This document shows positions 13,704-52,646 of a DNA stretch of 64,000 nt, one piece after another. The notes under the pieces are model-generated. The model saw only the letters and a program-made list of their open reading frames with translations, searched no databases and had not been told where the DNA came from. Positions within the stretch are counted from its first letter, which is position 1; the number at the start of each line of letters is the position of its first letter. Source of the DNA: Spirochaetales bacterium (GTDB lineage: Bacteria > Spirochaetota > GWE2-31-10 > MWDO01); assembly GCA_017540815.1 (NCBI GenBank), contig JAFYAI010000144.1:67705-131704 (forward strand), written 5' to 3'. The translations under genes and the position numbers were made by a program.

Positions 13704-13765
13704 TGTCTCCCGCCTGAATTTAGTTTTATTTTATTATTTTGTCACTGCAGTATGTAACGACATTA

Positions 13766-30335: not shown

Positions 30336-30365
30336 GTTTTACTCCTGTTTCTTTCCTCAAACAAA

Positions 30366-33300
30366 TTATGCACCCTGTGTTACGGTCTTAAACGCCTGCA
30401 TCTCAGCATCATCACGACTAAGTCCGCGGCTTTCAGCCAATGCAATTTCCTGCAGTATTCGCTTATAGTCGTTGGGGATAACCTTCTTAAAGTCTCCAAT
30501 TATATTGTCGAAGTCGTCAAGAATGGAGCGACCCAACTCGGAATCTGTCTCTGCGACATGACGCTCAATCAGGTCACGCAAAACTTTTTTGTCTTCCGGT
30601 TCGGTAACTTCTTCAAGACTGACAAGTTCGTGATTGAGTTTTTTGTAAAGCGTGTGATCGCTGTCGTAAACAAAAGCAACTCCGCCGCTCATTCCTGCTG
30701 CAAAGTTTCGCCCAGTCTTACCCAAGATCACAACCGTGCCGCCGGTCATATACTCAAGTCCGTGATCGCCGCAGCCTTCTGCAACAGCATTTGCTCCGGA
30801 GTTTCGCACGCAGAATCTTTCGCCTGCAATGCCGTTTATGTAAGCCTCGCCGCTTGTCGCCCCAAACAATGCAACATTCCCGACGATGATATTTTCCTGT
30901 GCCTTTAATGTAAAGTTCTCGCTCGGCCGCACAACAAGTTTCCCGCCGGAAAGACCTTTACCAAAGTAGTCGTTTGCATCTCCATGCAGATAAAGCGAAA
31001 GCCCTTTCGGAATGAATGCTCCAAACGACTGACCCGCTCCGCCTTCGCAGACAATGCGATATGTATCAGCATCAATTTTTCCGCCGAACCGTTTCTGGAT
31101 CTCGCTTCCCAAGATCGTTCCGAATGCTCTGTCTGTGCTGTGGATTTTGATTGGTACAGTGTTTCCCATTTTTTCTCCTTTTTCAAAAACCGGCAGCAGC
31201 ACTTTTTCGTCTAAAGTTTTTTCAAGTCCAAAATTATACACATCCGACTGAACAAAATGCATTTTGCCGGCATCTCCTGTCTTCGCCAAAATGCGGGACA
31301 CATCAAGCAACGCTGCATGTCCGCCGGCAGGATTTTCCCGGACACTGATAAGCTCAGTTCTTCCAACAAGCTCATCTACTGTGCGAATGCCGAACCTCGC
31401 CATATACTCACGCATCTCCTGTGCGATGAATCTCATAAAATTTTCTACATATTCAGGCTTCCCCGGAAATCTGGCACGGAGTTTTTCATTCTGAGTTGCA
31501 ACTCCGAACGGACAAGTGTCTTTTTGGCAGACTCGCATCATTCGGCAACCCATCGCAATAAGCGGTGCCGTCGCAAAACCAAATTCTTCTGCTCCAAGCA
31601 AAGCGGCGATTATCACATCGCGTCCGCTCATCAGCTTGCCGTCAGTTTCAATCCTCACACGGCTGCGAAGTCCGTTCTGGATCAGAGTCTGATGAGTTTC
31701 TGCCAAACCCAACTCCCACGGCAAGCCGGCGTGGTGAATACTGGAGATAGGAGCAGCTCCGGTTCCGCCATCGTGACCGCTAATCAGGATTACCTGAGCA
31801 CCGGCCTTTGCAACTCCGGCAGCAATAGTTCCGACTCCTGCTTCGCTGACAAGTTTTACGCTGATTCTTGCTGCACGGTTTGCATTTTTCAGGTCATAGA
31901 TCAATTCTGCCAGATCTTCTATAGAATAAATATCGTGATGAGGCGGCGGAGAAATCAAACTTACTCCTGGAGTAGACAGACGAGTGTGAGCAATCCACGG
32001 ATAAACTTTTTTCCCCGGCAAATGTCCGCCCTCACCGGGCTTTGCTCCCTGAGCCATTTTTATCTGGATCTCTTTTGCACTTAACAGATATTCTTCCGTT
32101 ACACCAAAGCGGCCGCTTGCAACCTGCTTAATCGCAGAATTGTATTTCGTACCAAGACGCTTTGGATTTTCGCCGCCTTCGCCGGAGTTTGACTTGCCGT
32201 GCAGACGGTTCATTGCTTCCGCCATACACTTGTGTGCGTCTTCGCTAATCGAGCCGTAACTCATAGCCCCTGTCTTAAACCGCTGCACAATCTCATCGAC
32301 ACTTTCAACTTCATCAATCGGGATTTCTTTTTTACCTTCATAATTAAACTCAAACAAACTTCGCAATGTGTGCGGTCGGCTCTTGTCATCAACCATAGCG
32401 GTGTATTCTTTGAAGCGAGCGTAATCTTCGTTCTGAACAGCCTGCTGCAATGCCACAATCGTTTCCGGCGAATAAAGATGGTCTTCGCAGGTTGTACCGC
32501 GGCGGAACTTGTGCTTCCCAACCGAGTCAAGATGAGTATTCACGCTCAGCCCAAGCGGATCAAATGCGTGATTGTGGTGATACTTAATGTCATCTTCAAT
32601 CTCTTTAAGCGTGATTCCGCCGACACGGCTAACGGTATTTGTAAAATATTTGTCAGTGACTTCTTTTGATATTCCGACTGCTTCAAAAATCTGTGCCGAC
32701 TGATACGATTGTATGGAAGATATACCCATCTTTGCTGCGATTTTTACAACACCGCTTAGAAGTGCCTTGTTATAATCGTCAATCGCCGTGTGATAATCTT
32801 TGTCGAGCAGCTTTTGGTCGATAAGTTCTGCAATGCACTCGTGGGCAAGATACGGATTGACGGCTCGTGCTCCGTAGCCCAGACACATTGCCGCCTGATG
32901 AACATCGCGGACTTCTGCACTTTCCAGGATTATAGAGATCTTTGTCCGCTTTTTTGTGCGAATCAGATACTGCTCCACTGCACTTACCGCAAGCAGCGAC
33001 GGGATCGCAGCATGACTTTCGTCAACTCCGCGGTCAGACAGGATTATGATATTACAGCCTTCATGATAACATTTTTCGATCTCGTTAAAAACGCCGTCAA
33101 TCGCAGACTCAAGCGAAGTATTTTTATAAAATAAAATCGATACTGTCGCCGCTTTATAACCGGGTTTATCGAGTGCCTTAATCTTTATCGTATCAACTCC
33201 TGTCAAGATCGGATTATTAATCTCCAGCACGATACAGTTTTCACTTTTTGCTTCGAGCAGATTACCGTCGCTTCCTACATAAACTGTTGTGTCTGTAACG

Positions 33301-34934
33301 ATTTTTTCCCGCAGAGAATCAATCGGCGGATTTGTAACCTGCGCAAAAAGCTGCTTGAAGTAAGAATAAAGCGGCGGATGCTTATCAGACAAAACCGCAA
33401 GCGGAGTATCCACACCCATGCTCGCTGTCGGCTCTACTCCGTCACGTGCCATCGGCAAAACCATTTCATTTACATCTTCATAATTCCAGCCGAATGCACG
33501 GTACATGATGTTGCGTTCGTCCTGTGTATAAACAGGGATTTTTTTGTTTGGGATCTTCAGATCGCTCAAATGAAGCAGATTTCTGTCAAGCCACTCGCCA
33601 TAAGGATGAAGTGATGCGTAATATTTTTTGCATTCTTCGTCAGAGATAATCCGCTTGCTGACAGTGTCCACAAGCAGAATACGGCCGGGCATAAGCCGTG
33701 ATTTTTTGACGATTTTTTCTTCCGGTATATCAAGCACACCGACTTCACTTGCCAAAATGAGCATATTGTCATTTGTGATATAATAACGGCTCGGTCGAAG
33801 TCCGTTCCTGTCAAGCGTTGCACCAAGCAAATCTCCGTCGCTGAACAAAATGGCAGCAGGTCCGTCCCAGCTTTCCATCATCGTAGCGTAATAATGATAA
33901 AAATCCTTTTTATCGGAATCCATAGCACTGTCGTTTTTCCATGCTTCAGGAATGCACATCATTATAGCAAGCGGAAGCGGTGTTCCGTTCATCATAAGGA
34001 ATTCAAGAGTATTGTCAAGCATTGCCGAATCACTTCCGTTAGTGTCTACTGCCGGAAGGATCTTCTTCATCTCGTCCTCCGCAATAATGTCTGAATGCAG
34101 AGTTTCTTCGCGGGAAAGCATTCTGTCAACATTTCCGCGGATTGTATTGATCTCTCCGTTATGGGCGATCAGCCGGTTTGGATGAGCCCTGTGCCAGCTG
34201 GGCTGCGTATTTGTACTGAATCGAGAATGAACAAGAGCAAGTGCACTCTTAAACTTTGGTGACTGTAAGTCTTTGTAAAAAAGGCGCAGCTGAGCAACCA
34301 AAAACATCCCCTTATAAACAATCGTGCGGCTGCTTAACGAACATACATAAGCGGCTCCTGCCGGGAAACTTTTCTCAAAGTGCCGTCTTAAAATATAAAG
34401 CTTACGGTCAAAATCAATGCCCTTCGCACAATTCTCAGGACGGGCAACAAAGCACTGCATAATGACCGGCATACAGCTGCGGGCTTTTTCACCCAGAACT
34501 TCTTCGGCAATCGGGACATGCCGCCAGCCCAAAAATCTCAAATCCTCTTTTTGGCAAAGATTTTCAAAAAGTTTCATCGTCTTACTTCTTGCAAAACCGT
34601 CGCCTGACAAAAAGAACATTCCAACGCCATAATCGCGTTCATCGCCAATACTGCTGCAAACCGATCCGTTACTGCCGACAATTTCACCGTTCACAGCAGC
34701 TCCGGAAAAAAACTCATGCGGGATCTGTACTAAAATACCTACACCGTCACCTGTTTCGCCCGAAGCATCTTTGCCGGCACGATGTTCGAGTTTCTCTACG
34801 ATAGACAGTGCATTGTCCACAACCGTGTAACTTTTAATCCCGTCGATGCTGACGATCGCCCCAATTCCACAAGCATCGTGTTCAAAAGAAGGTTCATATA
34901 AAGTTTTTGCATTCTGATAATTATGATTTTCCAT
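30366..34934 (-). CDS. gltB: glutamate synthase large subunit
   Basis: Start taken at MENHNYQNAKTLYEPSFEHDACGIG (N-terminal amidotransferase Cys), ATG at 34934. The ORF-track extension to 35240 runs into the divergent lysR promoter. FMN and GXGXG domains present. Confidence 0.9.
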   Translation of the reverse strand: MENHNYQNAKTLYEPSFEHDACGIGAIVSIDGIKSYTVVDNALSIVEKLEHRAGKDASGETGDGVGILVQIPHEFFSGAAVNGEIVGSNGSVCSSIGDERDYGVGMFFLSGDGFARSKTMKLFENLCQKEDLRFLGWRHVPIAEEVLGEKARSCMPVIMQCFVARPENCAKGIDFDRKLYILRRHFEKSFPAGAAYVCSLSSRTIVYKGMFLVAQLRLFYKDLQSPKFKSALALVHSRFSTNTQPSWHRAHPNRLIAHNGEINTIRGNVDRMLSREETLHSDIIAEDEMKKILPAVDTNGSDSAMLDNTLEFLMMNGTPLPLAIMMCIPEAWKNDSAMDSDKKDFYHYYATMMESWDGPAAILFSDGDLLGATLDRNGLRPSRYYITNDNMLILASEVGVLDIPEEKIVKKSRLMPGRILLVDTVSKRIISDEECKKYYASLHPYGEWLDRNLLHLSDLKIPNKKIPVYTQDERNIMYRAFGWNYEDVNEMVLPMARDGVEPTASMGVDTPLAVLSDKHPPLYSYFKQLFAQVTNPPIDSLREKIVTDTTVYVGSDGNLLEAKSENCIVLEINNPILTGVDTIKIKALDKPGYKAATVSILFYKNTSLESAIDGVFNEIEKCYHEGCNIIILSDRGVDESHAAIPSLLAVSAVEQYLIRTKKRTKISIILESAEVRDVHQAAMCLGYGARAVNPYLAHECIAELIDQKLLDKDYHTAIDDYNKALLSGVVKIAAKMGISSIQSYQSAQIFEAVGISKEVTDKYFTNTVSRVGGITLKEIEDDIKYHHNHAFDPLGLSVNTHLDSVGKHKFRRGTTCEDHLYSPETIVALQQAVQNEDYARFKEYTAMVDDKSRPHTLRSLFEFNYEGKKEIPIDEVESVDEIVQRFKTGAMSYGSISEDAHKCMAEAMNRLHGKSNSGEGGENPKRLGTKYNSAIKQVASGRFGVTEEYLLSAKEIQIKMAQGAKPGEGGHLPGKKVYPWIAHTRLSTPGVSLISPPPHHDIYSIEDLAELIYDLKNANRAARISVKLVSEAGVGTIAAGVAKAGAQVILISGHDGGTGAAPISSIHHAGLPWELGLAETHQTLIQNGLRSRVRIETDGKLMSGRDVIIAALLGAEEFGFATAPLIAMGCRMMRVCQKDTCPFGVATQNEKLRARFPGKPEYVENFMRFIAQEMREYMARFGIRTVDELVGRTELISVRENPAGGHAALLDVSRILAKTGDAGKMHFVQSDVYNFGLEKTLDEKVLLPVFEKGEKMGNTVPIKIHSTDRAFGTILGSEIQKRFGGKIDADTYRIVCEGGAGQSFGAFIPKGLSLYLHGDANDYFGKGLSGGKLVVRPSENFTLKAQENIIVGNVALFGATSGEAYINGIAGERFCVRNSGANAVAEGCGDHGLEYMTGGTVVILGKTGRNFAAGMSGGVAFVYDSDHTLYKKLNHELVSLEEVTEPEDKKVLRDLIERHVAETDSELGRSILDDFDNIIGDFKKVIPNDYKRILQEIALAESRGLSRDDAEMQAFKTVTQGA

Positions 34935-35007
34935 TTCACAATCCTTATCCGTAGTGACGGTTCTTTTTATCTTGAAATTATTATAAACTTTTAATAAAAA
35001 AAATAAA

Positions 35008-35023
35008 AATACTATTATTATTG
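35008..35023 (+). promoter_or_regulatory. copy A of the conserved motif AAATACTATTATTATTG, 74 nt upstream of gltB and 45 nt upstream of the divergent lysR
   Basis: Identical 16-17-mer also at 50230 and 52483, each upstream of a nitrogen-assimilation transcription unit. Confidence 0.55.
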
Positions 35024-35067
35024 ACAAACTATGCAAAAAAAGTATATTATATATGTGAGGATTTTCT

Positions 35068-35961
35068 ATGGAGTTACGACATATAAAATATTTTCTTGCA
35101 GTAGCAGAAGAACAAAACATTACAAAGGCTTCGGAAAAGATTTGCATTTCACAGCCGCCTTTAAGTCGGGCTTTGATGGACTTGGAATACGAACTGAACT
35201 GCAAACTTTTTATCCGCGGGAAAAGGCGGATCACTCTCACCGAAGAAGGTCTTGCTCTAAAGCGGCGCGGCGAACAGCTGCTTGCCCTTGCCGAAATGAC
35301 AAAATCAGAGATTACCGAAATTAAAAACGGAATCAGCGGAACTCTGCATTTGGGACATGTTGACTCGAACGGACCGAGTCTTGCCGCTCAATGGATCTCT
35401 TCTTTCAAAAAGAAATATCCCACCGTCACTTACAATTTGTGGTGCGGCAATGTTGACGATCTTACCGACAGAATGAAAGCAGGTCTGATCGATCTTGCCA
35501 TAACGATGACACCGATGAACACGGAACTTTTAAACGGCATTAAAGTCTATTCCGAAAACTGGGTCGCCATCATTCCGCCGGGACACAAGCTTGCTCAGAA
35601 CAGGAAAAAGTCCGTGAGCATAGAAGAACTTATCGGGAATGACCTGATTATTTCTTCAAGGAAAAGCCGCGAAGAAGAAATCCGTGAATGGTTCAAAAGC
35701 ACAAATAAAGAGCCGCATTTTGTGGTAAAAACTGCCCATTCGTCAAATGCCGCAAAACTCGTCGAACAGGACATTGGTATCGCACTTTTCCCGGCCTCCG
35801 TTGCCAAAAATGTTACGGCAGGCTCTGAAGTCGTGATCAAAAAAATCACACCCGAAAAAACAGTGGAATACTATCTGTCTTGGATTAAAGAAAAATCCCA
35901 AAGCCTTCTTGCTCAGAAGTTTGTCCAGCATGTGCAGGATTTGGTGGGGGGAGAGGAGTAA
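35068..35961 (+). CDS. LysR-family transcriptional regulator, GltC-like by position (divergent from gltBD)
   Basis: N-terminal HTH MELRHIKYFLAVAEEQNITKASEKICISQPPLSRAL, then a LysR substrate-binding domain. 297 aa. Confidence 0.85.
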   Translation: MELRHIKYFLAVAEEQNITKASEKICISQPPLSRALMDLEYELNCKLFIRGKRRITLTEEGLALKRRGEQLLALAEMTKSEITEIKNGISGTLHLGHVDSNGPSLAAQWISSFKKKYPTVTYNLWCGNVDDLTDRMKAGLIDLAITMTPMNTELLNGIKVYSENWVAIIPPGHKLAQNRKKSVSIEELIGNDLIISSRKSREEEIREWFKSTNKEPHFVVKTAHSSNAAKLVEQDIGIALFPASVAKNVTAGSEVVIKKITPEKTVEYYLSWIKEKSQSLLAQKFVQHVQDLVGGEE

Positions 35962-35997: not shown

Positions 35998-36441
35998 TTA
36001 TAAAGATTTACATAAAAACATTTCCATAGGTTGTTCATAGCCTGAGAGATTCATTATTATTCCGCCACAGTCTTGATAACCAAGTTTTCTGTAAAAATGC
36101 TGTGCTGATTCATCAACTTGAGTAGATGTTAATACTATTCCATAGCCTTGATGTTTCATATCGTTTTCCCAATGATTTATAAGTAAAGAACCATATCCTT
36201 TTTTCTGTTCATTCCAGTCTATAAAAAGCAAAGTGCAAAATGGCGTATTATCCCAAAAAAGATTATATCTTAAAATTCCAACTGGTTTTTCATTCACATA
36301 AAGAACATATCCTTGTTTGTCTCGTATCTTTTTTTCAAATTCCGCTTCCGGCAAATGATTGTCTAATTTATACCAGAATTCTTTGTCCTCTTTTTTGACA
36401 TATTCTATTTTGGTCATTTTTTCCTTCTTGATCCAGTGCAC
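35998..36441 (-). CDS. GNAT-family N-acetyltransferase
   Basis: 147 aa. Acetyl-CoA motif ...QKKGYGSLLINHWENDMKHQGYGIVL... Confidence 0.7.
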   Translation of the reverse strand: MHWIKKEKMTKIEYVKKEDKEFWYKLDNHLPEAEFEKKIRDKQGYVLYVNEKPVGILRYNLFWDNTPFCTLLFIDWNEQKKGYGSLLINHWENDMKHQGYGIVLTSTQVDESAQHFYRKLGYQDCGGIIMNLSGYEQPMEMFLCKSL

Positions 36442-36448
36442 GCGTTAT

Positions 36449-37843
36449 CTACTTTATTGCCCAATGTCCCGTCTTTTTAGAACCTTCTCGCTCTATAATT
36501 CCTTTTTCACGAAGTGATTTTATTGCTCTGCTGACTGTCGGCATTGAAAATCTTGTAAGCCATGCTATTTCATCGGTTTTAATTAAAGGATTCTTTTTTA
36601 TTTCTTCCAAAACAGCGTTCTCTGATTCCGAAAGATTTAATCTATCATTTATTCTATCATTTATTCTATCAATACTGTCATTTAATCTATCATTTAATTT
36701 ATCATCATTACAATTTAATCTGTCATCTATCAGATTATTTTTTTCTGAATCAAAGAAAAATACCACATGAAAGAAGTTTGGCGAGATGTGGAAAATGTCA
36801 GGTTTATAGACATTCATCATGCGATTCATGCCACTGCCTAGTTGCTCCACAAATTCGGCATCTTTGAATACTCTCATTAATTCACGGTTTCGTGGGCGAG
36901 AAATACCACTTGTAAGTTCCTCTTGTGTCATACCATCTATAAGACCGCCGTAATTGGTAATTTCAAGACGGTCACTGAACAACTCAAAAACAGGTGTCAT
37001 CAAATCTGTATAATCGTTATGGACAAAGGCGTTAATGACCGCTTCTCTCATAGCGACAGAATCATACATTTGCTTTTCTATACGAAATTTATCTGTAATC
37101 TTTGTAAAGGTCTTATTTTCAATGCGAAGTTTGTCCAAAACTCTGTCTGTTGCCTTCAAAAGGGAACAATAACCGAGTTCTTCATTTTCAATTAAGTCCA
37201 CTTTATTTGTTCCTGCATATTTCGCAAATTTGATAGAAACACCATTTTCATCAGCCAGCAGATAAGCAAGAATGTTGTATTTTCCGTTAGGCGTATAAAA
37301 TTCAAGTGTCTTTGCAAATTCGGCATTCAGATTCTTTCCATGTTCCTCATAATAAATCCGCAACTGATTGAAAGTTAAATCCTGACGAGGTGCTTCAATT
37401 ACACGCAAGTTGCATCTTGTTCTGCGTGCAAAAAGATTTTCAATCATTTGTACCGAAAGGCTTTGCGTTTGACTTCCGATGCGTATAAAACAGCCATCGG
37501 GAGTCATTCCTTTTTGCTTTAAGTAATATGGCTTTTCGGTACCGCTTGAAACAATGACTTTGATATAGTACAGCGGATTTTTATCGTAAGTTTGTTCAAG
37601 AATTACATCGTATAAGCCTAAAGTTTCAGGAGCAATGTTGTTTTTAATTCTATCCGCAATTTGCAGTTGAACTTCATCGGGTTTTTCAACACCAATAATT
37701 TCACCATCATCGTTTACCCCAATGTAAATCGTGCCACCAGTGGAACTATTGAGCAATGCTACAATACTACGCTCAAAACGGTCGTTCAATATAAGTTTGT
37801 ACTCATAAAATTTTGATTCTGGATTTAGAATATGCTTGCTCAT
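36449..37843 (-). CDS. Schlafen/AlbA_2 + HATPase_c_4 + C-terminal wHTH protein (often annotated as putative transcriptional regulator or RecG-related ATP-binding protein)
   Basis: AlbA_2 signature VALLNSSTGGTIYIGVNDDGEIIGV. HATPase_c_4 block REAVINAFVHNDYTD...LEITNYGGL. C-terminal PTVSRAIKSLREKGII. Confidence 0.75.
   Translation of the reverse strand: MSKHILNPESKFYEYKLILNDRFERSIVALLNSSTGGTIYIGVNDDGEIIGVEKPDEVQLQIADRIKNNIAPETLGLYDVILEQTYDKNPLYYIKVIVSSGTEKPYYLKQKGMTPDGCFIRIGSQTQSLSVQMIENLFARRTRCNLRVIEAPRQDLTFNQLRIYYEEHGKNLNAEFAKTLEFYTPNGKYNILAYLLADENGVSIKFAKYAGTNKVDLIENEELGYCSLLKATDRVLDKLRIENKTFTKITDKFRIEKQMYDSVAMREAVINAFVHNDYTDLMTPVFELFSDRLEITNYGGLIDGMTQEELTSGISRPRNRELMRVFKDAEFVEQLGSGMNRMMNVYKPDIFHISPNFFHVVFFFDSEKNNLIDDRLNCNDDKLNDRLNDSIDRINDRINDRLNLSESENAVLEEIKKNPLIKTDEIAWLTRFSMPTVSRAIKSLREKGIIEREGSKKTGHWAIK
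36634..36733. repeat. 12-bp tandem repeat (about 7-8 units, consensus atttattctatc / atttaatctatc) inside the Schlafen-like CDS, encoding (DRLN/DRIN)n
   Basis: Seen directly. All units are multiples of 3 nt and therefore in-frame. Confidence 0.8.
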
Positions 37844-37908
37844 TGTTGACCACCAAATTATTTTCGATTTCTTATTCTACTGCAAATATATATTTTTGCT
37901 TTGACTAA

Positions 37909-38637
37909 TCATTTCTCTTCAAACAGTTCCTTAATATAATGGCGTAAGGATTGTAAGGATTGATCTATACTTTTGGAATAGACAAAACCATTAAGATAAT
38001 CTCTTTTTAAATCAAGTGGAAGCACATCCTTGTATTTTTCAATTACGGATATCATCTCACGTGCGTCCTCAAAATCGTCATTGTAAAACTTGAATTCCTT
38101 GTTTCCGAATTTATAAGAAACATATACTTTGTATCTATAAGGGTGCCTATTAGTGGTTCCGTGGCCGGGAGATTTCAGTATCTTCTTGAATCCGACCTGT
38201 ATGCTTTCAGCTTCGGCAAGATTATAATTTTTTGACAAGTATTCTGTAATGAACCTGCTTTTCACAGTTTCGTCATAAAGTTCCGAGCGGCAAAAAAACG
38301 GTGTGACAAAGCAAGATAAAAATAAAATCAGACCTGCAATAAAAAGCGGCCGCCTCTTTTCTTTCCATGGTTTTTTACTCCATGAATTTGGAAGAAGCCC
38401 CATTTCCCCGCACGCCTCACCAATCACAAAAGTGACAAAAATCAAAAAAATATATCCAAGATATTTGAGCCACGAAGGGTGAACAGCAAGAGCGTCCGAT
38501 GTGGCAAACACGATTTTCTTCTGAATCGGATTGTAGACGAACATGTAAACCGGTATTGCAAAAAAAGACAAAAAAACAGGATCTTTAATAAATCTTTTCT
38601 TCGGTTTTTCTTCCGTTGGTCCGGTAATATATTCCAT
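37909..38637 (-). CDS. hypothetical membrane protein (3-4 TM helices)
   Basis: 242-aa ORF. Hydrophobic segments in the N-terminal 120 aa. 10-nt gap to the upstream ORF. Confidence 0.55.
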   Translation of the reverse strand: MEYITGPTEEKPKKRFIKDPVFLSFFAIPVYMFVYNPIQKKIVFATSDALAVHPSWLKYLGYIFLIFVTFVIGEACGEMGLLPNSWSKKPWKEKRRPLFIAGLILFLSCFVTPFFCRSELYDETVKSRFITEYLSKNYNLAEAESIQVGFKKILKSPGHGTTNRHPYRYKVYVSYKFGNKEFKFYNDDFEDAREMISVIEKYKDVLPLDLKRDYLNGFVYSKSIDQSLQSLRHYIKELFEEK

Positions 38638-38646
38638 AGTATCCTC

Positions 38647-39351
38647 CTATTCAGACTCAACAGGTGACGGGTATAACGATTCATAAGTGGAAAAATCCTC
38701 TGTGGAATCTTTGGAAGAGGTGTCCCGAATATCTTGCAGCCAATCGTCGTTCCAATACTCATCGTAATCGTTTTCGTAATCGTTGTCGGAAAATTCACTG
38801 GAAGGCTTCATCTCGTCCATCAATTCCTTGATGGAAACGTTTTCAGAAGCCGGATGCAGAATCTTCTGAAAATCGGCGTCCGCCAACGACGAAATGCCCG
38901 GCATAACAAGCCAGCCCAACGCCAGTGCATATAAAATGGAAGCAACAGAGTGTCGCAAAGGAGAAATCATCTTCCACGGCTTGTTTTTTTTCACCCGAAT
39001 CGTACACGGACCCGCGACAGGATTATAGCCCGGAAGATTGCTCATAAGAGTAGGAGTTGAAATATACAGTTTATCGTCCACAATATAGCGGTATGTAGGA
39101 ACCTTCAATCTTGGAATATAAAACTTAAAATACCCATGACCGATGTTGCGAGCTTGCCCTGTCACCGTCGCATCCTTTATGTTGAAGAGCTCAGCGTCAA
39201 CCTTCCGTGTTCCAAAGCCCAGAAGCGGCAGTTCAATAAACAGACCTATAAAAAACTGAATAAGAACTATCAGCATCCAAGTTATATTACTGTCTTTCAC
39301 ATAAGAATACAAAAGCGTAGCAAGAAATCCTTTTATAACCGCTATAATCAT
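38647..39351 (-). CDS. DUF3592-like membrane protein with an acidic C-terminal tail
   Basis: TM-beta-rich-TM layout with VAGPCTIRVKKNKPWKMIS motif. C-terminal 60 aa very acidic. Start overlaps the upstream stop. Confidence 0.55.
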   Translation of the reverse strand: MIIAVIKGFLATLLYSYVKDSNITWMLIVLIQFFIGLFIELPLLGFGTRKVDAELFNIKDATVTGQARNIGHGYFKFYIPRLKVPTYRYIVDDKLYISTPTLMSNLPGYNPVAGPCTIRVKKNKPWKMISPLRHSVASILYALALGWLVMPGISSLADADFQKILHPASENVSIKELMDEMKPSSEFSDNDYENDYDEYWNDDWLQDIRDTSSKDSTEDFSTYESLYPSPVESE

Positions 39352-40182
39352 TTATCCATCCTGTAAAACTTTTTTGAAATTGTTCTTCTCGTCGATTTTT
39401 TCTGCCGCATTCCTAAAAAGACCGTTCACATCCACAATGAATTTTTCGGGCTTTTTCTTGTCTAAAAGAATGCTTACCTTTGTTCCCGGTTTAATAAATT
39501 TGTACGGTTCGGTCCAAAAAACCGCACTTTCAACATATTTTTCTTGTCCATCTGAGTCATAGCAGCAGATAAGGGTGTAATTTTTTTTGAAGCGTAATTT
39601 TCTGTTTATTGTCGTATCCCGCTCTGCATTATGTTCAACAATCTTCACTACAGTTCCTTCTGTTTCAACGGCATTTTTTGCAGAAAGCTCAACCCAGGGA
39701 TGCTCCTTCCAGAAGCGCTTGTTGAAGAGTTTTGTCTTAAGGTAGCCTAAAAGTCCAACCTTGAAGCCTATATAAAAGAAAATGCCTCCCATAACAAGCA
39801 GGAACATCGGCCCAAAAAACAATTCTGACTGCAACCGCGCTTTATAAGGCTCTCCGTTCAGCACATATACGGTGAAAGTTTCCCCTTCCGTCCATGCGGT
39901 GCTGCGAACACCGGGATGAATTTCATATTTTTTTTCATTGTAATAAAAAGAAAACCTGGAACCTTTGTCGGAAACGGAAATCAGCTCCGCCTTTACAGGT
40001 TCGCCTTTTACAACATACTCAATTTTGGAAGGGAGAATCAGGCACATAATCAAAAGCATAACAAGACCCGGAAGGCCAAAGGCAAGAAGTGCAATCTTCA
40101 GCGGCGAATCGATTCCTTTGTCAGTGCGAGGCTTTTCATTCTCAAAAATTTCAATTTTTTGAATAGATTGAATAGAATTCAT
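39352..40182 (-). CDS. membrane protein with two tandem DUF3592-like domains
   Basis: GETFTVYVLNGEPYKARL and GTKVSILLDKKKPEKF blocks, each preceded by a TM helix. 4-nt overlap with the FGE-like ORF upstream. Confidence 0.6.
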   Translation of the reverse strand: MNSIQSIQKIEIFENEKPRTDKGIDSPLKIALLAFGLPGLVMLLIMCLILPSKIEYVVKGEPVKAELISVSDKGSRFSFYYNEKKYEIHPGVRSTAWTEGETFTVYVLNGEPYKARLQSELFFGPMFLLVMGGIFFYIGFKVGLLGYLKTKLFNKRFWKEHPWVELSAKNAVETEGTVVKIVEHNAERDTTINRKLRFKKNYTLICCYDSDGQEKYVESAVFWTEPYKFIKPGTKVSILLDKKKPEKFIVDVNGLFRNAAEKIDEKNNFKKVLQDG

Positions 40183-41507
40183 ATTCCTTTCTCCGTTTTA
40201 TTATCATCTTCTGTCTGCTGCTGCGGACGGGCGTGCGGGGCGATCTGATGCGACAAGCCATCTCCAATGTGCCTGCCTGCTGCCCGGAACGAACCACACG
40301 GAAGCTGCGGCTGCCGCTCCTGCTGCCCGGAACGGACAACACGGAAACCTACGCCGTAGTTCCCGATGCCGGGGTCATAGTCGCCACGCCCCGACACTGA
40401 GCAGAGGTTCGCAAAATAGTTCCAACTGCCGCCGCGAAAAACTCGGCAATCGCCCGACGATTCTCCGGCGTAATCTTTACTATTTGATCGATTATCGCCA
40501 TACCAATCCCAGCACCATTCCCAAACATTGCCGCTCATATCATATATTCCGAGTTCATTGGCTTGCTTTGTATTTACTTCGTGTGATACAAATCCGCTGT
40601 TGCCATTATACCAAGCGACTTCGTCAATATCATTACTGCCGGCATATTTATATCCTTGACTGCTGCTTCCTCCGCGTGCGGCAAACTCCCATTCATTCTC
40701 TGTCGGCAGGCGATAGCCGTCAGCCGTCAGCTCACAAACTGCGTTATCCCACAATGTATCGTTATCTGTCGGCACACTTGCTGCATCTTCGGGATATGTG
40801 CCGTCTGAGAGTTTATAGCAGCGTGTCCTGCCCATCAGCAGCGACAATTTGTTGCAGAAGACTATCGCATCATACCAGCTGACTTGTTCCACCGGATGAT
40901 TGCAGCCTTTGAAATAAGCAGGATTATGCCCCATTACTTCTTCGTAGAGTCTCTGTGTCACCTGATATTTGCCGATCTCAAAACCGCTTACCGTAATGCT
41001 GTATTTCTTACGCTCAGCTTCACATTTCAATGTGCCGCCTTCCACTCGGATCATCGGACAAATATCATTGACTGTTATATTCAGGCTCTTTAGCCTATCG
41101 ATGACATCATCTTTATCGGCTTTGGCGGCGATGAGAGCAAGTATGTCGTTGAGATTTTCCACCCATTCGACAACTTTTGCATTTGCCAGCTCCAGCTCGA
41201 TGTTATACTTGCCCCAAATGATAATATACTGAGCCTGCTCGCCATGATATGGCCTGACATTTGCCAAGCCGAATGCAGCAACAGCACGCTCCAACGCAGT
41301 CTTCGCAGAAACATAATTAATCTCATCAAGTTTTGCCTGTTTGGCTTTTTCTATATCAAAGTCGGTATTATGACAGTTATCCGTATTATGACAGTCATCC
41401 TCAGAATTAAGGGCATCCATGAACCCCGTTATTATATCAAAGTCGGATTTTATTATATCAAAGGCAGAATTTATTATATCGAAGTCAGTATTATGACGGT
41501 TATCCAT
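40179..41507 (-). CDS. FGE-sulfatase (formylglycine-generating-enzyme fold) domain protein, non-catalytic type, with a repeat-rich N-terminal extension and an aberrant duplicated C-terminus
   Basis: Core YQVTQRLYEEVMG...GYRLPTENEWEFAARGG...DMSGNVWEWCWDWYG...RVFRGGSW...GFRVVRSGQQ lacks the FGE Cys-x4-Cys pair. The 3' end contains a roughly 40-bp tandem duplication re-encoding FRVVRSGQQ in another frame (40290-40390). Confidence 0.75.
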   Translation of the reverse strand: MDNRHNTDFDIINSAFDIIKSDFDIITGFMDALNSEDDCHNTDNCHNTDFDIEKAKQAKLDEINYVSAKTALERAVAAFGLANVRPYHGEQAQYIIIWGKYNIELELANAKVVEWVENLNDILALIAAKADKDDVIDRLKSLNITVNDICPMIRVEGGTLKCEAERKKYSITVSGFEIGKYQVTQRLYEEVMGHNPAYFKGCNHPVEQVSWYDAIVFCNKLSLLMGRTRCYKLSDGTYPEDAASVPTDNDTLWDNAVCELTADGYRLPTENEWEFAARGGSSSQGYKYAGSNDIDEVAWYNGNSGFVSHEVNTKQANELGIYDMSGNVWEWCWDWYGDNRSNSKDYAGESSGDCRVFRGGSWNYFANLCSVSGRGDYDPGIGNYGVGFRVVRSGQQERQPQLPCGSFRAAGRHIGDGLSHQIAPHARPQQQTEDDNKTEKGI

Positions 41508-41530
41508 AGAATGCTCCTAATATAATTATA

Positions 41531-41567
41531 AAAAGATAAAAAAATCAAAGACTTTTTTATCTTTTTA
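41531..41567 (-). terminator. rho-independent terminator after the second FGE-like gene
   Basis: aaaaagataaaaaa-tcaaagac-ttttttatcttttt hairpin with flanking U-tract. Confidence 0.6.
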
Positions 41568-41575
41568 TAATTGAT

Positions 41576-41600
41576 CATTGCTCACTGCACATTGCCCATT
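41576..41600. repeat. 25-bp direct repeat copy 1 (cattgctcactgcacattgcccatt)
   Basis: 24/25 identical to 42770..42794. The two copies bracket the second FGE-like gene. Confidence 0.75.
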
Positions 41601-41604
41601 GCCC

Positions 41605-42462
41605 TCACTTCCCGTTCTTCACAACACGGAAGCCCATGTAGTCGTACCAATTGTCAGGTTCGCGGCACTCACGATCGGAGACGGAACAGCCCTCAGCACT
41701 GCTTAACCAACTGCCACCCCGATAAACTCGGCAATCGCCCATTGATGCTCCGGCGTAATCTTTAGTATCCGGTCTGTCACCGCCATACCAATCCCAGCAC
41801 CATTCCATAACATTACCGCTCATATCATAGATACCGAGTTCATTGGTTTTCTTTGTCTTTATTTTGTGTGTTGCATTTTTGCTGTTGTCAAAGTGCCAAG
41901 CCACATCATCTATATTATTACTTCCGCTGTATGTATAGCCTTTGCTCTGCTTGCCGCCTTTTGCTGCCCATTCCCATTCATTCTCTGTCGGCAGGCGATA
42001 GCCATTGGCAGATTTATTCCAGACAACAGTCCATTTACCATCATAAATGCTTGTGTTATCGGGATCTTCGCGGTCTTTGTCTATCGTATAGCACGGAGTC
42101 AGTCCTTCTTTGAGGCTTAACGCAATACAATATTCTACTGCGTCATACCAGCTGACATTCTCAACAGGTTTGTTGTCGCCTTTGAAATAACTCGGTTTGT
42201 TTCCCGTTACGGCACGATATTCCGCCTGCGTCACTTCGTGATCACAGATATAAAACGATGATACTAAGTCATTGCCTTCGACAAAAACAAAGTCTCCTTT
42301 CTTCGGCTCTGCTGCATTTGCCGTCTGTACCGCCGGCGAGAATGTCGCCAACAGTAGAATGTTTAGAATAATGAGGTGTTTAAAGTGAAAGTGAGTAAAA
42401 AGAGAGGTCTTGCCCCCAAAGCGATTTTCGTGCCAACTTTGAGGTTTTTTATAATTTTTCAT
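41605..42462 (-). CDS. secreted FGE-sulfatase-domain protein (non-catalytic type)
   Basis: Signal peptide ...LLLATFSPAVQTANA. Core EVTQAEYRAVTG...GYRLPTENEWEWAAKGG...DMSGNVMEWCWDWYG...RVYRGGSW...GFRVVKNGK. Confidence 0.8.
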   Translation of the reverse strand: MKNYKKPQSWHENRFGGKTSLFTHFHFKHLIILNILLLATFSPAVQTANAAEPKKGDFVFVEGNDLVSSFYICDHEVTQAEYRAVTGNKPSYFKGDNKPVENVSWYDAVEYCIALSLKEGLTPCYTIDKDREDPDNTSIYDGKWTVVWNKSANGYRLPTENEWEWAAKGGKQSKGYTYSGSNNIDDVAWHFDNSKNATHKIKTKKTNELGIYDMSGNVMEWCWDWYGGDRPDTKDYAGASMGDCRVYRGGSWLSSAEGCSVSDRECREPDNWYDYMGFRVVKNGK

Positions 42463-42726
42463 TGAATTATCCTTCCTTTTTGTAGAATTTGTATTTATAT
42501 TATATTTTACACGAAATATGAGAATAATTCAATAAAAATCAGGATTTTTATCTTTTTTGTAGATTTTTTTGCAATAATGATGTGATTATGTCTTGGAATT
42601 TCAAGCATATTGTCAATATTAACACCATAAAAGGAATAAAAGTCCTGACAACAATGGAAGGATATAAAGATATATTGATTTATTCACCGGAAGCGTTCCA
42701 AATTGATAAGGAGGATAATGATGAAA

Positions 42727-42766
42727 ACAAAATAGATTTTGCTTCGCAAAATCTATTTTGTTTTAC
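42727..42766 (-). terminator. rho-independent terminator downstream of carB
   Basis: aaaatagatttt-gcttcgc-aaaatctatttt perfect 12-bp stem followed by a U-run on the minus strand. Confidence 0.65.
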
Positions 42767-42769
42767 AAT

Positions 42770-42794
42770 AATTGCTCACTGCACATTGCTCATT
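42770..42794. repeat. 25-bp direct repeat copy 2 (aattgctcactgcacattgctcatt)
   Basis: See copy 1. Lies between the carB stop and its terminator. Confidence 0.75.
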
Positions 42795-42802
42795 AAAATC
42801 AG

Positions 42803-45800
42803 TTACACCTCTTCTACGCCAATCGTCATCTCTTCAAGCACATCAAGCAGCACACGTACCGTGTCAAGCGATGTGAACATTGTTACGCGGTTTTGCGTGG
42901 CGGCTCGGCGAATGGCAGCTCCGTCTTTGTAATGAATACCGGAAAGAATCGCCCTTGTGTTGACCACATAGCTTACATAACCGGCACAGATTGAGTCGAT
43001 AACCTCGTGACTTCCTTCGCTGAGTTTATGAAGCGTTCGTGTTTGTATTCCGTGTCGGTTTAAGAATTCCGCAGTATGCGTTGTTGCTTCTATGTTGAAG
43101 CCCAGTTCGTAAAATCTTTTTGCAAGCGGCAGACCTTCTTCTTTGTCTTCGTTGGCAAGGGTAAAGATTACCGTTCCGTAATTCTGAATGCCGATCCCGC
43201 TTGCTGTCAATGCCTTGTAAAGAGCCCGATGAAGTTTCTTGTCATAACCGATCGCCTCTCCCGTAGACTTCATTTCCGGCGAAAGATAAGAGTCCATTCC
43301 CTGAAGTTTTGAGAAAGAGAATACCGGAGCTTTCACAAACCATCTCTGTCCGCGTCCGGGATTCATATCCGTAATGCCCTGATTGCGGAGTGTCTGCCCT
43401 ATTGCGATTTTCGCCGCAATATCAGCCAAATAAAATCCTGTCGCCTTTGACAGGAAAGGCACAGTCCGGCTGCTTCTGGGATTTACTTCGATGATGTAGA
43501 CTTTTTGATCAGGCGACACGATAAACTGAATGTTGAAAAGTCCGCGGATTCCAATCGCAAGCCCCAGTCTCCTCGTGTAGTCGCGGATTGTCTCCTGTAC
43601 TGCATCCGAAATCGAAAAAGTCGGATACACACTGATAGAATCCCCCGAATGAACGCCGGTCCGCTCAACAAGCTCCATAATGCCGGGGATAAAGACATCC
43701 GTACCGTCGCAGATCGCATCAACCTCAATTTCCTTGCCGGCAATATAATGATCTACCAGCACGGGACGCTTCTCATCAATCTCAACGGCGGTCTTCAGAT
43801 AATGACGCAGATCTGCTTCTTTGGAAACAATCTGCATCGCTCGTCCGCCCAAAACAAAACTCGGTCGCACAAGAACAGGATAGCCGACTTTTTCCGCTGC
43901 CGCTACACCGTCTTCGATCGAAGTTACGGCAACGCCGGATGACTGCGGAATGTTTTCGTTTTCAAGAAGCATCTCAAACAAGTCTCGGTCTTCCGCTTTT
44001 TTTATCGCTTCAAAATCCGTTCCGATTAAATGAACACCTCGTTCGGTCAGCGATTCGGCAAGATTTACCGCCGTTTGACCGCCAAGACTCACGATCACGC
44101 CAAGCGGATGCTCCATCTCTATCACATTCATTACATCTTCTATAAAAAGCGGCTCAAAGTAAAGTTTGTCGCTCGTCGTATAATCTGTGGAAACAGTCTC
44201 CGGATTATTGTTAATTACAATCGCCTCATATCCCGCCTCACGCAGAGTCTTCACCGCATGCACCGTAGAGTAGTCAAACTCAACTCCCTGACCGATACGG
44301 ATTGGACCTGCACCCAAGACGATTATTTTTTGCTTCGTGCCGAGCTGCACCGCTTCATTCTCGCTTTCATAGCAGGAATAAAAATATGGCACATAACTTT
44401 TGAACTCCGACGCACAGGTATCTATCATTTTGTAAACCGGCATAATGCCGCTTTGTTTCCTCAGTTCAAAAACTTCTTTTTCGGTTTTTTGCCACAAATG
44501 TGCAATGTAACGGTCAGAAAATCCCATCCGCTTCGCTTTCAAAAGTTCGTCAGTGTCAAGCGGATTTGCTTTTAAGACTTTTTCTTCCTGCACGATTTTA
44601 TTTATTTTATATAAAAAGAACTTGTCGATTTGTGTTATCTCGTGAATATTATTCAGTGTATTTTCATCCCTCCACAAAAGTTCAGCGATCGCATAAAGGC
44701 GGTCATCTGTTCCTTTTGAGATATAAGCAAAAAGTTCTTCATCAGACAAACTGTCAAACTTTTTCAGATAAATGTGTTCAACGCCCAGTTCAAGACTGCG
44801 GATCGCTTTCAGAAGGCTTTCTTCAAAAGTGCGTCCAATGCTCATCGCCTCGCCTGTGGCTTTCATCTGTGTGCCGAGCGTCTGGTTCGCATCGGTGAAT
44901 TTGTCAAACGGGAAACGAGGCATCTTTGTCACAACATAGTCAAGTGCAGGCTCAAAGCAGGCACTCGTATTTGCAAGACTGATCTCATCAAGGGTAAACC
45001 CAACGCTGATCTTTGTGGAGACTCGTGCAATCGGGTAACCGCTCGCCTTGGATGCCAATGCCGAAGACCGTGAAACACGCGGATTAACCTCTATCAGATA
45101 ATACTGAAACGACTGCGGATCGAGTGCGAACTGCACATTGCAGCCACCCTCAACTTTGAGTGCACGGATAAGCTTCAATGCACTGTCGCGGAGCATGTGA
45201 TATTCTCTGTTGGTCAGCGTCTGGCTTGGACACACTACGATTGAGTCGCCGGTATGAATGCCCACGGGATCCAAGTTTTCCATATTGCATACGGTGATCG
45301 CCGTATCGCTGCTGTCACGGATTACTTCATATTCGATCTCCTTGTAGCCCTTCACGCTTTTTTCTACAAGCACTTCACTCACCGGGGACAGTTCAAGTCC
45401 TTTTTTTAGAATTTCGTCAAGCATCGCCTCATCATCGGCAAAGCCGCCGCCTGTTCCGCCAAGGGTGAATGCCGGACGCAGCACCACTGGATAGCCGATT
45501 TCTTTTGCGGCTTTTCGCCCTTCTTCAAGCGAATGAACAGTGATCGAAGGCAAAACAGGTTCGCCGATTTGTTTGCACAAGTTCTTGAAGAGTTCACGGT
45601 CTTCTGCCATTTCTATACTTTCGAGTTTTGTTCCCAAAAGTTCACAGCTGCATTCGGAGAGAACGCCTTTTTTTGCAAGCTGGACAGCGAGATTGAGACC
45701 TGTCTGACCGCCAAGACCCGGCAGGATTGCATTGGGGCGTTCCTTGCGGATAATCTTTGCCATATATTCAAGGTTAAGCGGTTCCATATATATTTTATCC

Positions 45801-45982
45801 GCCACCGTTTTATCAGTCATAATCGTAGCGGGATTCGAGTTGCACAGGACAACTTCGTAGCCTTCCTCTTTTAAGGCAAGAGCAGCTTCCGTTCCCGCAT
45901 AGTCAAATTCCGCTGCCTGTCCGATCACAATCGGACCTGAGCCGATTACCAATATTTTGTGAATGTCTGTTCTTTTTGGCAT
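42803..45982 (-). CDS. carB: carbamoyl-phosphate synthase large subunit
   Basis: 1059 aa. Duplicated ATP-grasp halves and C-terminal MGS-like domain. N-terminal MPKRTDIHKILVIGSGPIVIGQAAEFDYAG. Confidence 0.95.
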   Translation of the reverse strand: MPKRTDIHKILVIGSGPIVIGQAAEFDYAGTEAALALKEEGYEVVLCNSNPATIMTDKTVADKIYMEPLNLEYMAKIIRKERPNAILPGLGGQTGLNLAVQLAKKGVLSECSCELLGTKLESIEMAEDRELFKNLCKQIGEPVLPSITVHSLEEGRKAAKEIGYPVVLRPAFTLGGTGGGFADDEAMLDEILKKGLELSPVSEVLVEKSVKGYKEIEYEVIRDSSDTAITVCNMENLDPVGIHTGDSIVVCPSQTLTNREYHMLRDSALKLIRALKVEGGCNVQFALDPQSFQYYLIEVNPRVSRSSALASKASGYPIARVSTKISVGFTLDEISLANTSACFEPALDYVVTKMPRFPFDKFTDANQTLGTQMKATGEAMSIGRTFEESLLKAIRSLELGVEHIYLKKFDSLSDEELFAYISKGTDDRLYAIAELLWRDENTLNNIHEITQIDKFFLYKINKIVQEEKVLKANPLDTDELLKAKRMGFSDRYIAHLWQKTEKEVFELRKQSGIMPVYKMIDTCASEFKSYVPYFYSCYESENEAVQLGTKQKIIVLGAGPIRIGQGVEFDYSTVHAVKTLREAGYEAIVINNNPETVSTDYTTSDKLYFEPLFIEDVMNVIEMEHPLGVIVSLGGQTAVNLAESLTERGVHLIGTDFEAIKKAEDRDLFEMLLENENIPQSSGVAVTSIEDGVAAAEKVGYPVLVRPSFVLGGRAMQIVSKEADLRHYLKTAVEIDEKRPVLVDHYIAGKEIEVDAICDGTDVFIPGIMELVERTGVHSGDSISVYPTFSISDAVQETIRDYTRRLGLAIGIRGLFNIQFIVSPDQKVYIIEVNPRSSRTVPFLSKATGFYLADIAAKIAIGQTLRNQGITDMNPGRGQRWFVKAPVFSFSKLQGMDSYLSPEMKSTGEAIGYDKKLHRALYKALTASGIGIQNYGTVIFTLANEDKEEGLPLAKRFYELGFNIEATTHTAEFLNRHGIQTRTLHKLSEGSHEVIDSICAGYVSYVVNTRAILSGIHYKDGAAIRRAATQNRVTMFTSLDTVRVLLDVLEEMTIGVEEV

Positions 45983-45983
45983 T

Positions 45984-48502: not shown

Positions 48503-48555
48503 ACTCCATTACTCATCTCGAATGTATCGAATATGTAATTTGTCATAATGCAATC

Positions 48556-50172: not shown

Positions 50173-50229
50173 ATTTTTTTACCTCGCATTGAATGTTGTT
50201 GAATTATAGTCATTTTATTAAAAAAATTA

Positions 50230-50247
50230 AAATACTATTATTATTGG
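50230..50247 (+). promoter_or_regulatory. copy B of the conserved motif AAATACTATTATTATTGG, about 58 nt upstream of the asnB start
   Basis: See 35008. Lies between the glnA terminator and asnB, so it heads the asnB-purF-carA-carB unit. Confidence 0.55.
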
Positions 50248-50282
50248 ATAATAATATAAAAAAGGTATGGAATACCCATTAC

Positions 50283-50316
50283 ATAAAAACAGCGAGAGAA
50301 ATCTGTTCCCTCGCTA
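50283..50316 (-). terminator. rho-independent terminator after glnA
   Basis: agcgaggg-aacagattt-ctctcgct hairpin plus U-run on the minus strand, directly after the glnA stop at 50325. Confidence 0.55.
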
Positions 50317-50324
50317 TTTATGCT

Positions 50325-52424: not shown

Positions 52425-52482
52425 ATATTCCTCCTGATTTTTTTATTACGAGGCTGATTATAGCGGATTATCGTTAAATACG

Positions 52483-52499
52483 CAAATACTATTATTATT
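52483..52499 (+). promoter_or_regulatory. copy C of the conserved motif AAATACTATTATTATTA, about 60 nt upstream of the glnA start
   Basis: See 35008. Confidence 0.55.
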
Positions 52500-52646
52500 A
52501 ATAAATGATACCTATTAGGTATTGTAAATTTTCTATATATTTCTTAAACAAAACACTTTTCATTTAAAAAAAAATGTGCTATCATACCGCTCGGTTATGC
52601 GGCAGCTTTTAAGCGGTCAGTTCGTTCACAATTGGAGGCAACATTT

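Follow-up and report, generated by a model that had tools for sequence, protein, structure and literature searches.

TvpA-like variable-protein genes, a membrane-protein cassette and an AlbA_2/GNAT pair in an accessory stretch of a spirochaete nitrogen-metabolism cluster

A 6.8 kb stretch (positions 35998-42802) divides a nitrogen-metabolism cluster in the DNA of a Spirochaetales bacterium, and its seven open reading frames (ORFs) raise the question of whether they constitute one system or several. The stretch lies within the 64 kb of DNA analysed here, which is called the window below. An initial annotation had described it as an AT-rich accessory island with two proteins of the formylglycine-generating enzyme (FGE) fold, three small membrane proteins, an AlbA_2 (Schlafen-like) protein and a GNAT acetyltransferase, and had proposed that the first FGE gene and the membrane trio form a self-contained four-gene module. 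The stretch is read here, with some confidence, as a mosaic of three unrelated pieces, namely variable proteins of the type served by diversity-generating retroelements (DGRs), a membrane-protein cassette and an AlbA_2/GNAT pair.

The two FGE-fold genes carry the first part of the answer:

40179..41507, minus strand: FGE1, 442 aa, a TvpA-like protein (Pfam, PDB search, orthologue alignment)
41605..42462, minus strand: FGE2, 285 aa, a TvpA-like protein of the C-type-lectin/FGE fold, predicted to be secreted (Pfam, PDB search, hydrophobicity)

From their sequences, FGE1 and FGE2 are predicted to be DGR variable proteins of the TvpA family, a published class. Both contain the Pfam FGE-sulfatase domain (E 1.4e-44 in FGE1 and 3.5e-40 in FGE2), and the best PDB match of both was 2Y3C, the structure of TvpA from Treponema denticola, with E-values of 7e-54 for FGE1 (catalytic FGEs ~1e-11) and 4e-46 for FGE2 (FGE enzymes ~4e-12). 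The earlier description of the pair as stand-alone ligand-binding modules of unknown type thus gives way to the TvpA family, with 2Y3C as the closest solved relative. FGE1 was rejected as a catalytic formylglycine-generating enzyme (SUMF1/FGE), as the active-site Cys pair (LCHxSYC) is incomplete. In alignments to 6S07 and 6MUJ the position of the first Cys is occupied by Tyr364 of FGE1 and coincides with a codon of the variable region (VR) described below, and only the second, scaffold Cys is retained, which bears out the non-catalytic character assigned previously. Genes annotated as 'SUMF1/EgtB/PvdO family nonheme iron enzyme' in metagenome-assembled genomes (MAGs) of rumen spirochaetes would by the same token be DGR-type variable binders and not enzymes.

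FGE1 is composed of a repeat-bearing N-terminal extension (aa 1-~150), an FGE/C-type-lectin (CLec) domain (aa 152-392) and a lineage-specific tail of 48 aa. The extension had been called repeat-rich, and Tandem Repeats Finder (TRF) located tandem repeats of 21 nt x3 at 41429-41492 and 18 nt x2 at 41365-41400 in it. The hydropathy profile of FGE2 features a signal-like hydrophobic segment at about residues 27-48, consistent with the secretion predicted before, and that of FGE1 revealed neither an export signal nor a transmembrane (TM) segment. A 290-aa protein, P0033, joins the N-terminus of FGE2 to the C-terminus of FGE1 including the tail, and represents either recombination between the paralogues or an assembly chimera.

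Among DGR targets, variable proteins of the FGE fold, of which TvpA is the archetype, make up the largest class, and N-terminal extensions occur in part of it (PMC5758913). In T. denticola, two to seven scattered FGE-type targets per genome are located far from a single template repeat (TR) and reverse transcriptase (RT), and strains without the RT/TR core retain leftover targets (PMC4891356). FGE1 and FGE2 share fold and family with TvpA (TDE2269; PDB 2Y3C; PMC4891356), one of the category 'b' CLec1 targets (PMC5758913). They also share the VR at the extreme C-terminus with a conserved GFRV motif at its end, a probable placement of the variability at AAY-type codon positions and, as in some members of the family, an N-terminal extension of unknown function. 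The likeness to T. denticola extends to genome organization, with several dispersed targets remote from any RT/TR and targets left over without machinery. In contrast to TvpA, the FGE2 N-terminus is signal-like but not that of a lipoprotein (no lipobox Cys was seen), FGE1 has no signal, and FGE1 bears a duplicated VR 3' boundary and a read-through tail of 48 aa that overlaps the next gene. The pair further departs from TvpA-type systems in that no cognate TR/RT was found for it and in that its VRs are static across strains.

The assignment to DGR targets was examined at the two C-terminal variable regions:

40336..40429, minus strand: FGE1 VR, with GCAGTTGG at 40422-40429, a 24-codon core at 40350-40421 and GGTTTCCGTGTTGT at 40336-40349
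41621..41714, minus strand: FGE2 VR, with GCAGTTGG, a 72-nt core and GGCTTCCGTGTTGT (VR-frame pattern; register with the TR/VR pair of locus L033)

Alignment of FGE1 with an 85%-identical orthologue (L004) gave a DNA identity of 90.7% that ends exactly at 40422. In the 24-codon core, differences were counted at 36 of 72 sites (50%), versus 73 of 555 upstream (13%), and the GFRVV end is constant. The core differences fall preferentially on codon positions 1 and 2 (Fisher p = 0.002 and 0.01, two orthologues), and the third position of the variable FGE1 codons is almost always a pyrimidine (C or T). A few further variable FGE1 codons are found upstream of the VR, up to ~40470.

The pattern GCAGTTGG-N72-GGYTTCCGTGTTGT, built from the constant flanks, retrieved 15 metagenome loci, of which L033 was the only complete cassette; the other 14 comprised a VR only and were mostly near contig ends. 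L033 (JFJP01034419.1, 936-4532) encodes a 654-aa FGE-type target, an HRDC accessory gene and a 344-aa RT with a YMDD motif, and its TR overlaps the 3' end of the RT gene. This TR contains 32 A in 72 nt, and all 15 of the 15 core mismatches between TR and VR fall at TR adenines. The VRs of FGE1 and FGE2 are equal in length and register to the L033 TR/VR pair and share with L033 the VR frame GCAGTTGG-N72-GGYTTCCGTGTTGT and the scaffold residues (R, W, C, S, R, P, GFRVV). The difference is that L033 has TR, RT and HRDC within 2 kb and none of the three occurs in the window. When the sites variable among FGE1, FGE2, P0002 and P0004 were projected onto the L033 TR, a heterologous template from another organism, 27 of 32 adenine positions were variable versus 21 of 40 positions elsewhere (p = 0.006), and restricting the comparison with this heterologous TR to codon positions 1 and 2 left the enrichment in place (p = 0.004). 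The sharp boundary, the codon bias, the register with L033 and the adenine enrichment therefore indicate that the C-termini were written by DGR mutagenesis.

In the mechanism that we propose, FGE1 and FGE2 would be C-type-lectin/FGE-fold binders whose last ~30 codons form the ligand-binding surface. This surface would have been written by mutagenic retrohoming, in which the RT of a DGR copies the TR into cDNA and misincorporates opposite adenines, mostly those of AAY codons, after which the cDNA replaces the VR up to a fixed 3' boundary. The two targets would no longer be serviced (orphaned) and would have become binders of fixed specificity, FGE2 probably exported and FGE1 apparently devoid of an export signal. 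The trio would be a separate, horizontally moving cassette of two DUF3592-type proteins and one orphan, which may have landed directly behind FGE1 in this lineage with loss of its own upstream region; as this upstream region is missing, the trio is probably transcribed from the FGE1 promoter.

The 3' end of FGE1 may preserve a record of this history, in two overlapping features:

40276..40346, minus strand: partial duplication of the VR boundary with a 43-nt period, made up of copy 1 (28 nt, 40319-40346), a 15-nt spacer (40304-40318) and copy 2 (40276-40303, two mismatches)
40179..40318, minus strand: GC-rich FGE1 3' tail, 58% GC, with an ATGA overlap with the Mem1 start codon

The duplication at the end of the FGE1 VR shifts the frame relative to copy 2, lies where the TR/VR homology ends in the L033 DGR and is unchanged in five independent contigs, and we infer that it is a scar of the retrohoming history. 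The tail of 48 aa is absent from P0002 and P0004 (85% and 77% orthologues), which end directly after GFRVVRS(A/K), and from P0224 and P0226 of the own 90% cluster of FGE1, which end in RPLCR or RPLGR. No similarity of the GC-rich tail to any fetched locus was found, a remnant of a TR flank being one candidate origin. The 4-nt overlap of FGE1 with Mem1, the first gene of the trio, exists because of this lineage-specific tail.

Whether the retroelement is still at work was approached from both its machinery and its products. Neither an RT nor an HRDC gene was found in the 64 kb window (Pfam; tblastn with the RT and HRDC proteins of L033), nor was a TR-like repeat. Scanning a genome collection with the adenine-free VR end TTCCGTGTKGTYCGTTCCGG gave nine loci, all of them chance matches in unrelated taxa, and the species is apparently absent there in this form. 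Three scans of viral contigs with VR-derived patterns returned zero matches, and the metagenome scan with the VR frame yielded no adenine-rich TR besides that of L033 and none matching the window VRs, in collections (genome, viral and metagenome alike) that were not shown to contain this species. On the side of the products, five contigs of different samples agree completely (100% identity) in the FGE1 VR and tail, with differences of 3-5% in Mem1 and 2-7% in carB, and the eight members of the FGE1 90% cluster carry essentially one VR with varying N-terminal regions. The VR is likewise nearly invariant among the 15 members of the FGE2 90% cluster despite three different N-termini and differing signal peptides, with few substitutions at VR positions (E/A/G, D/N, W/L).

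FGE1 and FGE2 are accordingly regarded as probable DGR targets that are remote or, more likely, orphaned and no longer serviced, and the locus would then clearly illustrate how variable regions become fixed. Scattered and orphaned TvpA-like targets, known from oral T. denticola, would thereby be extended to ruminant gut spirochaetes. The habitat is taken from the sample labels of related contigs, which we presume, unverified, to denote ruminant gut studies; one relative is labelled Treponemataceae.

The competing proposal that a TR, RT, HRDC or Avd elsewhere on the chromosome still diversifies FGE1 and/or FGE2, perhaps rarely or conditionally, is considered rather unlikely. It has a precedent in T. 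denticola, where as many as seven targets, hundreds of kb away, depend on one TR/RT (PMC4891356), and the window covers only part of a contig of at least 241 kb. Contigs also break at the FGE2 VR (L001 and L003 start at 41690 and L006 has a scaffold N-gap), which VR heterogeneity could cause, and the substitutions among the FGE2 cluster VRs (E/A/G, D/N, W/L) would fit residual activity. However, the five contigs and the eight cluster members diverge by up to 7% in protein sequence elsewhere and still have one identical FGE1 VR, the 15 FGE2 members with their three N-termini show next to no change in their VR, and the 43-nt duplication disrupts the VR boundary of FGE1. No second copy of the VR end emerged from the genome or viral collections and no TR but that of L033 from the metagenome, with the same limit that these collections were not shown to hold the species.

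The second piece of the proposed mosaic is the membrane trio:

39352..40182, minus strand: Mem1, 276 aa, with a beta-rich domain after each of its two TM helices (Kyte-Doolittle profile, AlphaFold2 model)
38647..39351, minus strand: Mem2, 234 aa, a divergent DUF3592-type protein with an acidic C-terminal tail of ~75 aa
37909..38637, minus strand: Mem3, 242 aa, a membrane protein without a family match, whose C-terminal domain is alpha/beta

None of Mem1-3 matched a family above threshold in Pfam, NCBIfam or PADLOC, in agreement with their earlier designation as uncharacterised, and the one protein that had been described with an acidic tail is Mem2. Homologues are rare, as 22 were found for Mem1 among 5.8 billion proteins, 18 relatives for Mem2 among 1.84 billion representatives and 59 for Mem3. 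The AlphaFold2 models were too weak to use; that of Mem1 displays a TM helix, five strands and a TM helix (pLDDT 74-88 for residues 40-140), and that of Mem3 is of low confidence. As for the DUF3592-like repeats of the initial annotation, Mem1 reached 20.3 bits against DUF3592 (PF12158), below the gathering threshold of 25.3 and in its second domain only, and 12 of its 22 homologues gave sub-threshold matches as well. Mem2 had no direct match, but its distant relatives P0210, P0211 and P0214 scored 25.5-28.9 bits, and Mem3 had none. The repeats thus remain sub-threshold in Mem1, and the family link holds for Mem2 through these relatives. Mem1 and Mem2 have in common with DUF3592, a family with no established function, the layout of a TM helix, a small beta domain and a TM helix. 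They differ from it in that Mem1 has two such units, Mem2 has the long acidic tail, neither passes the Pfam threshold, and both reside in a fixed three-gene cassette with the family-less Mem3.

Trio orthologues in other contexts, with 82-94% nucleotide identity, match the window across the trio only and share no sequence with it upstream of the Mem1 ATG. The gene lengths (276/234/242 aa) and the gaps of 0 nt and 9 nt are conserved across contexts. In L042 and L043 the trio follows purD and is followed by HTH (helix-turn-helix), HigBA and Phd/YoeB genes, with no FGE gene. The identity of L042 to the window (93.7%) begins exactly at the Mem1 ATG and ends exactly at the Mem3 stop. The L042 trio is bracketed by a 43-nt direct repeat (3039-3081 and 5686-5728) that copies the 3' end of purD, an arrangement also present in L043. 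In the Treponemataceae MAG contig L037, Mem2-Mem3 is followed by an 83-aa purD fragment (GARS_C, 1203-1454). These purD-end repeats suggest site-specific or homology-mediated insertion of the cassette without an integrase of its own. In L017 and L018 the trio is divergently oriented from a D12 methyltransferase/DpnII restriction-modification (R-M) system, again with no FGE gene, and in L017-L019 the match to the window begins at the Mem1 start codon (window 40173) and continues until the contig ends. A Mem3 homologue alone, with 70% identity over its full length, occurs between Lon/DUF7675 and DUF218 genes in L038 (10001-10723) and also in L039-L041, and a protein identical to that of L038 is labelled Salinivirgaceae (Bacteroidota) in an NCBI MAG record; the solitary Mem3 in Bacteroidota therefore points to transfer across phyla, apparently among rumen bacteria.

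FGE1 is similarly found apart from the trio. Behind the 85%-identical FGE1 orthologue lies the gene of a 4Fe-4S protein and no trio, and other FGE1 orthologues lie in unrelated surroundings. In L016, FGE1 is truncated to 218 aa and FGE2 is deleted, and the trio is intact. Since the trio exists elsewhere without an FGE gene and FGE1 orthologues exist without the trio, the trio is a separate unit of three genes to which FGE1 does not belong.

A role of this rare, mobile cassette in envelope-level conflict or exclusion is a low-confidence guess from the neighbourhood, which comprises R-M, toxin-antitoxin, DGR targets and AlbA_2. A more specific version, which we consider improbable, depicts the trio as a tiny mobile membrane system, for example for phage or toxin exclusion, consisting of a promoter and three genes bracketed by short direct repeats and captured behind a fossil DGR variable protein, with FGE1 co-expressed as a possible ligand-recognition subunit. 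The trio offers an open lead for an envelope or defence role and is no priority target.

The four-gene envelope-sensing or defence system proposed earlier, with FGE1 for ligand recognition and the DUF3592 proteins for membrane output, now appears quite improbable. FGE1 and Mem1 do overlap by 4 nt with no terminator between them, the arrangement is kept in five contigs of the lineage, and the trio lacks here the promoter-like upstream region of the other contexts, so that it depends on FGE1 transcription. Nevertheless, the complete trio occurs without an FGE gene in at least two other contexts (L042/L043 and L017/L018), FGE1 orthologues occur without the trio, and the coupling depends on a frameshifted tail that is not conserved. 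In addition, the trio remains intact in L016 behind an FGE1 cut to 218 aa, and FGE1 has no export signal or TM segment. The self-contained four-gene module was consequently abandoned in favour of FGE1 and the trio being neighbours by chance. The case is a cautionary one, as the tight spacing and the 4-nt overlap that hinted at such a system arose from a read-through tail at a cassette junction.

Several observations weigh against the mosaic of orphaned DGR targets and an independent cassette. No cognate TR for either VR was found in the window or when the genome, viral and metagenome collections were scanned with exact patterns, and the template of the adenine-site test is the TR of a different organism (L033). 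A single TR for both VRs was rejected, as it would presumably need template codons such as TGA; since FGE1 and FGE2 are not derivable from one TR without implausible codons, at least two template lineages have to be assumed. No stable hairpin was found 3' of the FGE1 VR, the DNA fold of 40230-40370 being no better than that of shuffled sequences (z = +1.25). The missing hairpin is not decisive, because a GC-rich inverted repeat (IMH) downstream of the VR is present in only 34% of DGRs (PMC5758913). On the side of the trio, the genes always stand behind FGE1 in the window lineage (five contigs), with a good ribosome-binding site and the 4-nt overlap, so a functional link between FGE1 and the trio that evolved secondarily is conceivable. 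Finally, PADLOC and the viral contigs came up empty for the conflict role guessed for the trio from its neighbourhood; scans of the latter with Mem1 and Mem3 profiles gave no match.

The remaining explanation, that the FGE proteins are ordinary non-DGR binders whose C-termini diverged by positive selection or by gene conversion between paralogues, is likewise quite improbable: neither TR nor RT is at hand, and the P0033 chimera (FGE2 N-terminus/FGE1 C-terminus) and the FGE2-like VR scaffold of P0002 would indicate that paralogues exchange segments, yet the divergence sets in abruptly where the VR begins, the variable codons keep a third-position pyrimidine, the adenines of a genuine TR (L033) agree with both the register and the variable positions, and the nearest relative of known structure, ahead by 40 orders of magnitude in E-value, is an established DGR variable protein.

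The third piece of the mosaic lies farthest from the FGE genes:

36449..37843, minus strand: AlbA_2 (Schlafen-like) + HATPase_c_4 + winged helix-turn-helix (wHTH) protein, 464 aa (Pfam)
35998..36441, minus strand: GNAT acetyltransferase, 147 aa (Pfam Acetyltransf_1, E 1.7e-13), the most AT-rich gene of the island

Pfam upheld both assignments (GNAT, and SLFN_AlbA_2 with HATPase_c_4 and wHTH) as originally made, and the two genes, 7 nt apart, are a tightly spaced AT-rich pair of widespread regulator-like architecture. Predicted regulators with the three domains AlbA_2, HATPase_c_4 and wHTH bear the name COG2865. The domain order of the window protein is identical to that of such AlbA_2 regulators; what sets it apart is a repeat-encoded linker and the tight coupling to GNAT. 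The linker repeat, with ~6 copies of 12 nt at 36635-36726 (TRF), encodes (N/I)DR(L/I)N between HATPase_c_4 and wHTH. An exact look-up of the AlbA_2 protein returned no record. No island protein convincingly matches a defence-system model in PADLOC-DB 2.0. The AlbA_2 protein gave weak partial-domain matches only (pAgo-associated; wHTH of CARF/Csa3), and no match was obtained for Mem1-3, FGE1, FGE2 or GNAT.

Base composition follows the same divisions. All seven ORFs were recovered on the minus strand at the positions and with the tight spacing that had been given for them, the remaining distances being 0 nt between Mem1 and Mem2 and 9 nt between Mem2 and Mem3. The island has 39.6% GC versus 44.2% for the rest of the window, and the low-GC outliers (z <= -2) are GNAT (31.5%), AlbA_2 (35.6%) and Mem3 (36.9%) only. 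FGE1 (47.3%) and FGE2 (45.1%) are genome-like, and the FGE1 VR and tail reach 59-61% GC. The label of an AT-rich island therefore fits GNAT, AlbA_2 and Mem3 (31-37% GC) and does not fit the FGE genes, which have the genome-average GC. The stretch is a compositional mosaic, both accessory and variable. Its accessory nature, already suspected, is borne out by L016, which lacks FGE2 and has a truncated FGE1, and by the trio and Mem3 in other genomic contexts.

No tRNA in the island, no direct repeat between its two borders and no integrase among its ORFs were found under strict integrative-element criteria. An empty site was not found either, as lysR-containing contigs of other samples end within GNAT and no alternative junction was seen. 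Variation was evident at the opposite border:

42463..42802, unstranded: variable carB-FGE2 junction, with copies of the 19-nt motif GCAATGTGCAGTGAGCAAT and junction differences in L006 and L016

The 64 kb window contains just two exact copies of the motif GCAATGTGCAGTGAGCAAT (0.01 expected), one at 42771-42789 after the carB stop and one at 41577-41595 after the FGE2 stop; the copies bracket a 1.2 kb FGE2 segment and resemble an insertion or duplication footprint. The sequence of the carB-FGE2 junction itself differs in L006 and L016. The spacer holds a short ORF fragment (42582-42730, plus strand) with no Pfam match, and unrelated sequence stands there in L006 (2363-2650). FGE2 had further been credited with its own promoter and terminator, but promoter- and terminator-like sites in the region are no commoner than in shuffled sequence; an AT-only inverted repeat can be read from the sequence 3' of the FGE2 stop.

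The flanks belong to the nitrogen-metabolism cluster, with gltD, gltB and lysR on one side and carB, carA, purF, asnB, a type III glnA and purA on the other. This nitrogen-assimilation cluster is unusually complete (window 28806-35961 and 42803-53870), its sole interruption being the accessory stretch, and pyrB/pyrI (25747-27143) and an OTCase gene (164-1129) are located farther away. Elsewhere in the window, at 9130-16402, two very large, acidic and internally repetitive ORFs (1086 and 878 aa) without a Pfam match come after an MptE-like gene; their repeats of 96-149 nt are spaced 699 nt apart. Four ORFs of 335-350 aa without a Pfam family (27717-28736, 55839-56882, 57034-58041 and 58061-59113) may be further accessory genes, and those at 27717-28736, 55839-56882 and 58061-59113 are AT-rich (32-40% GC).

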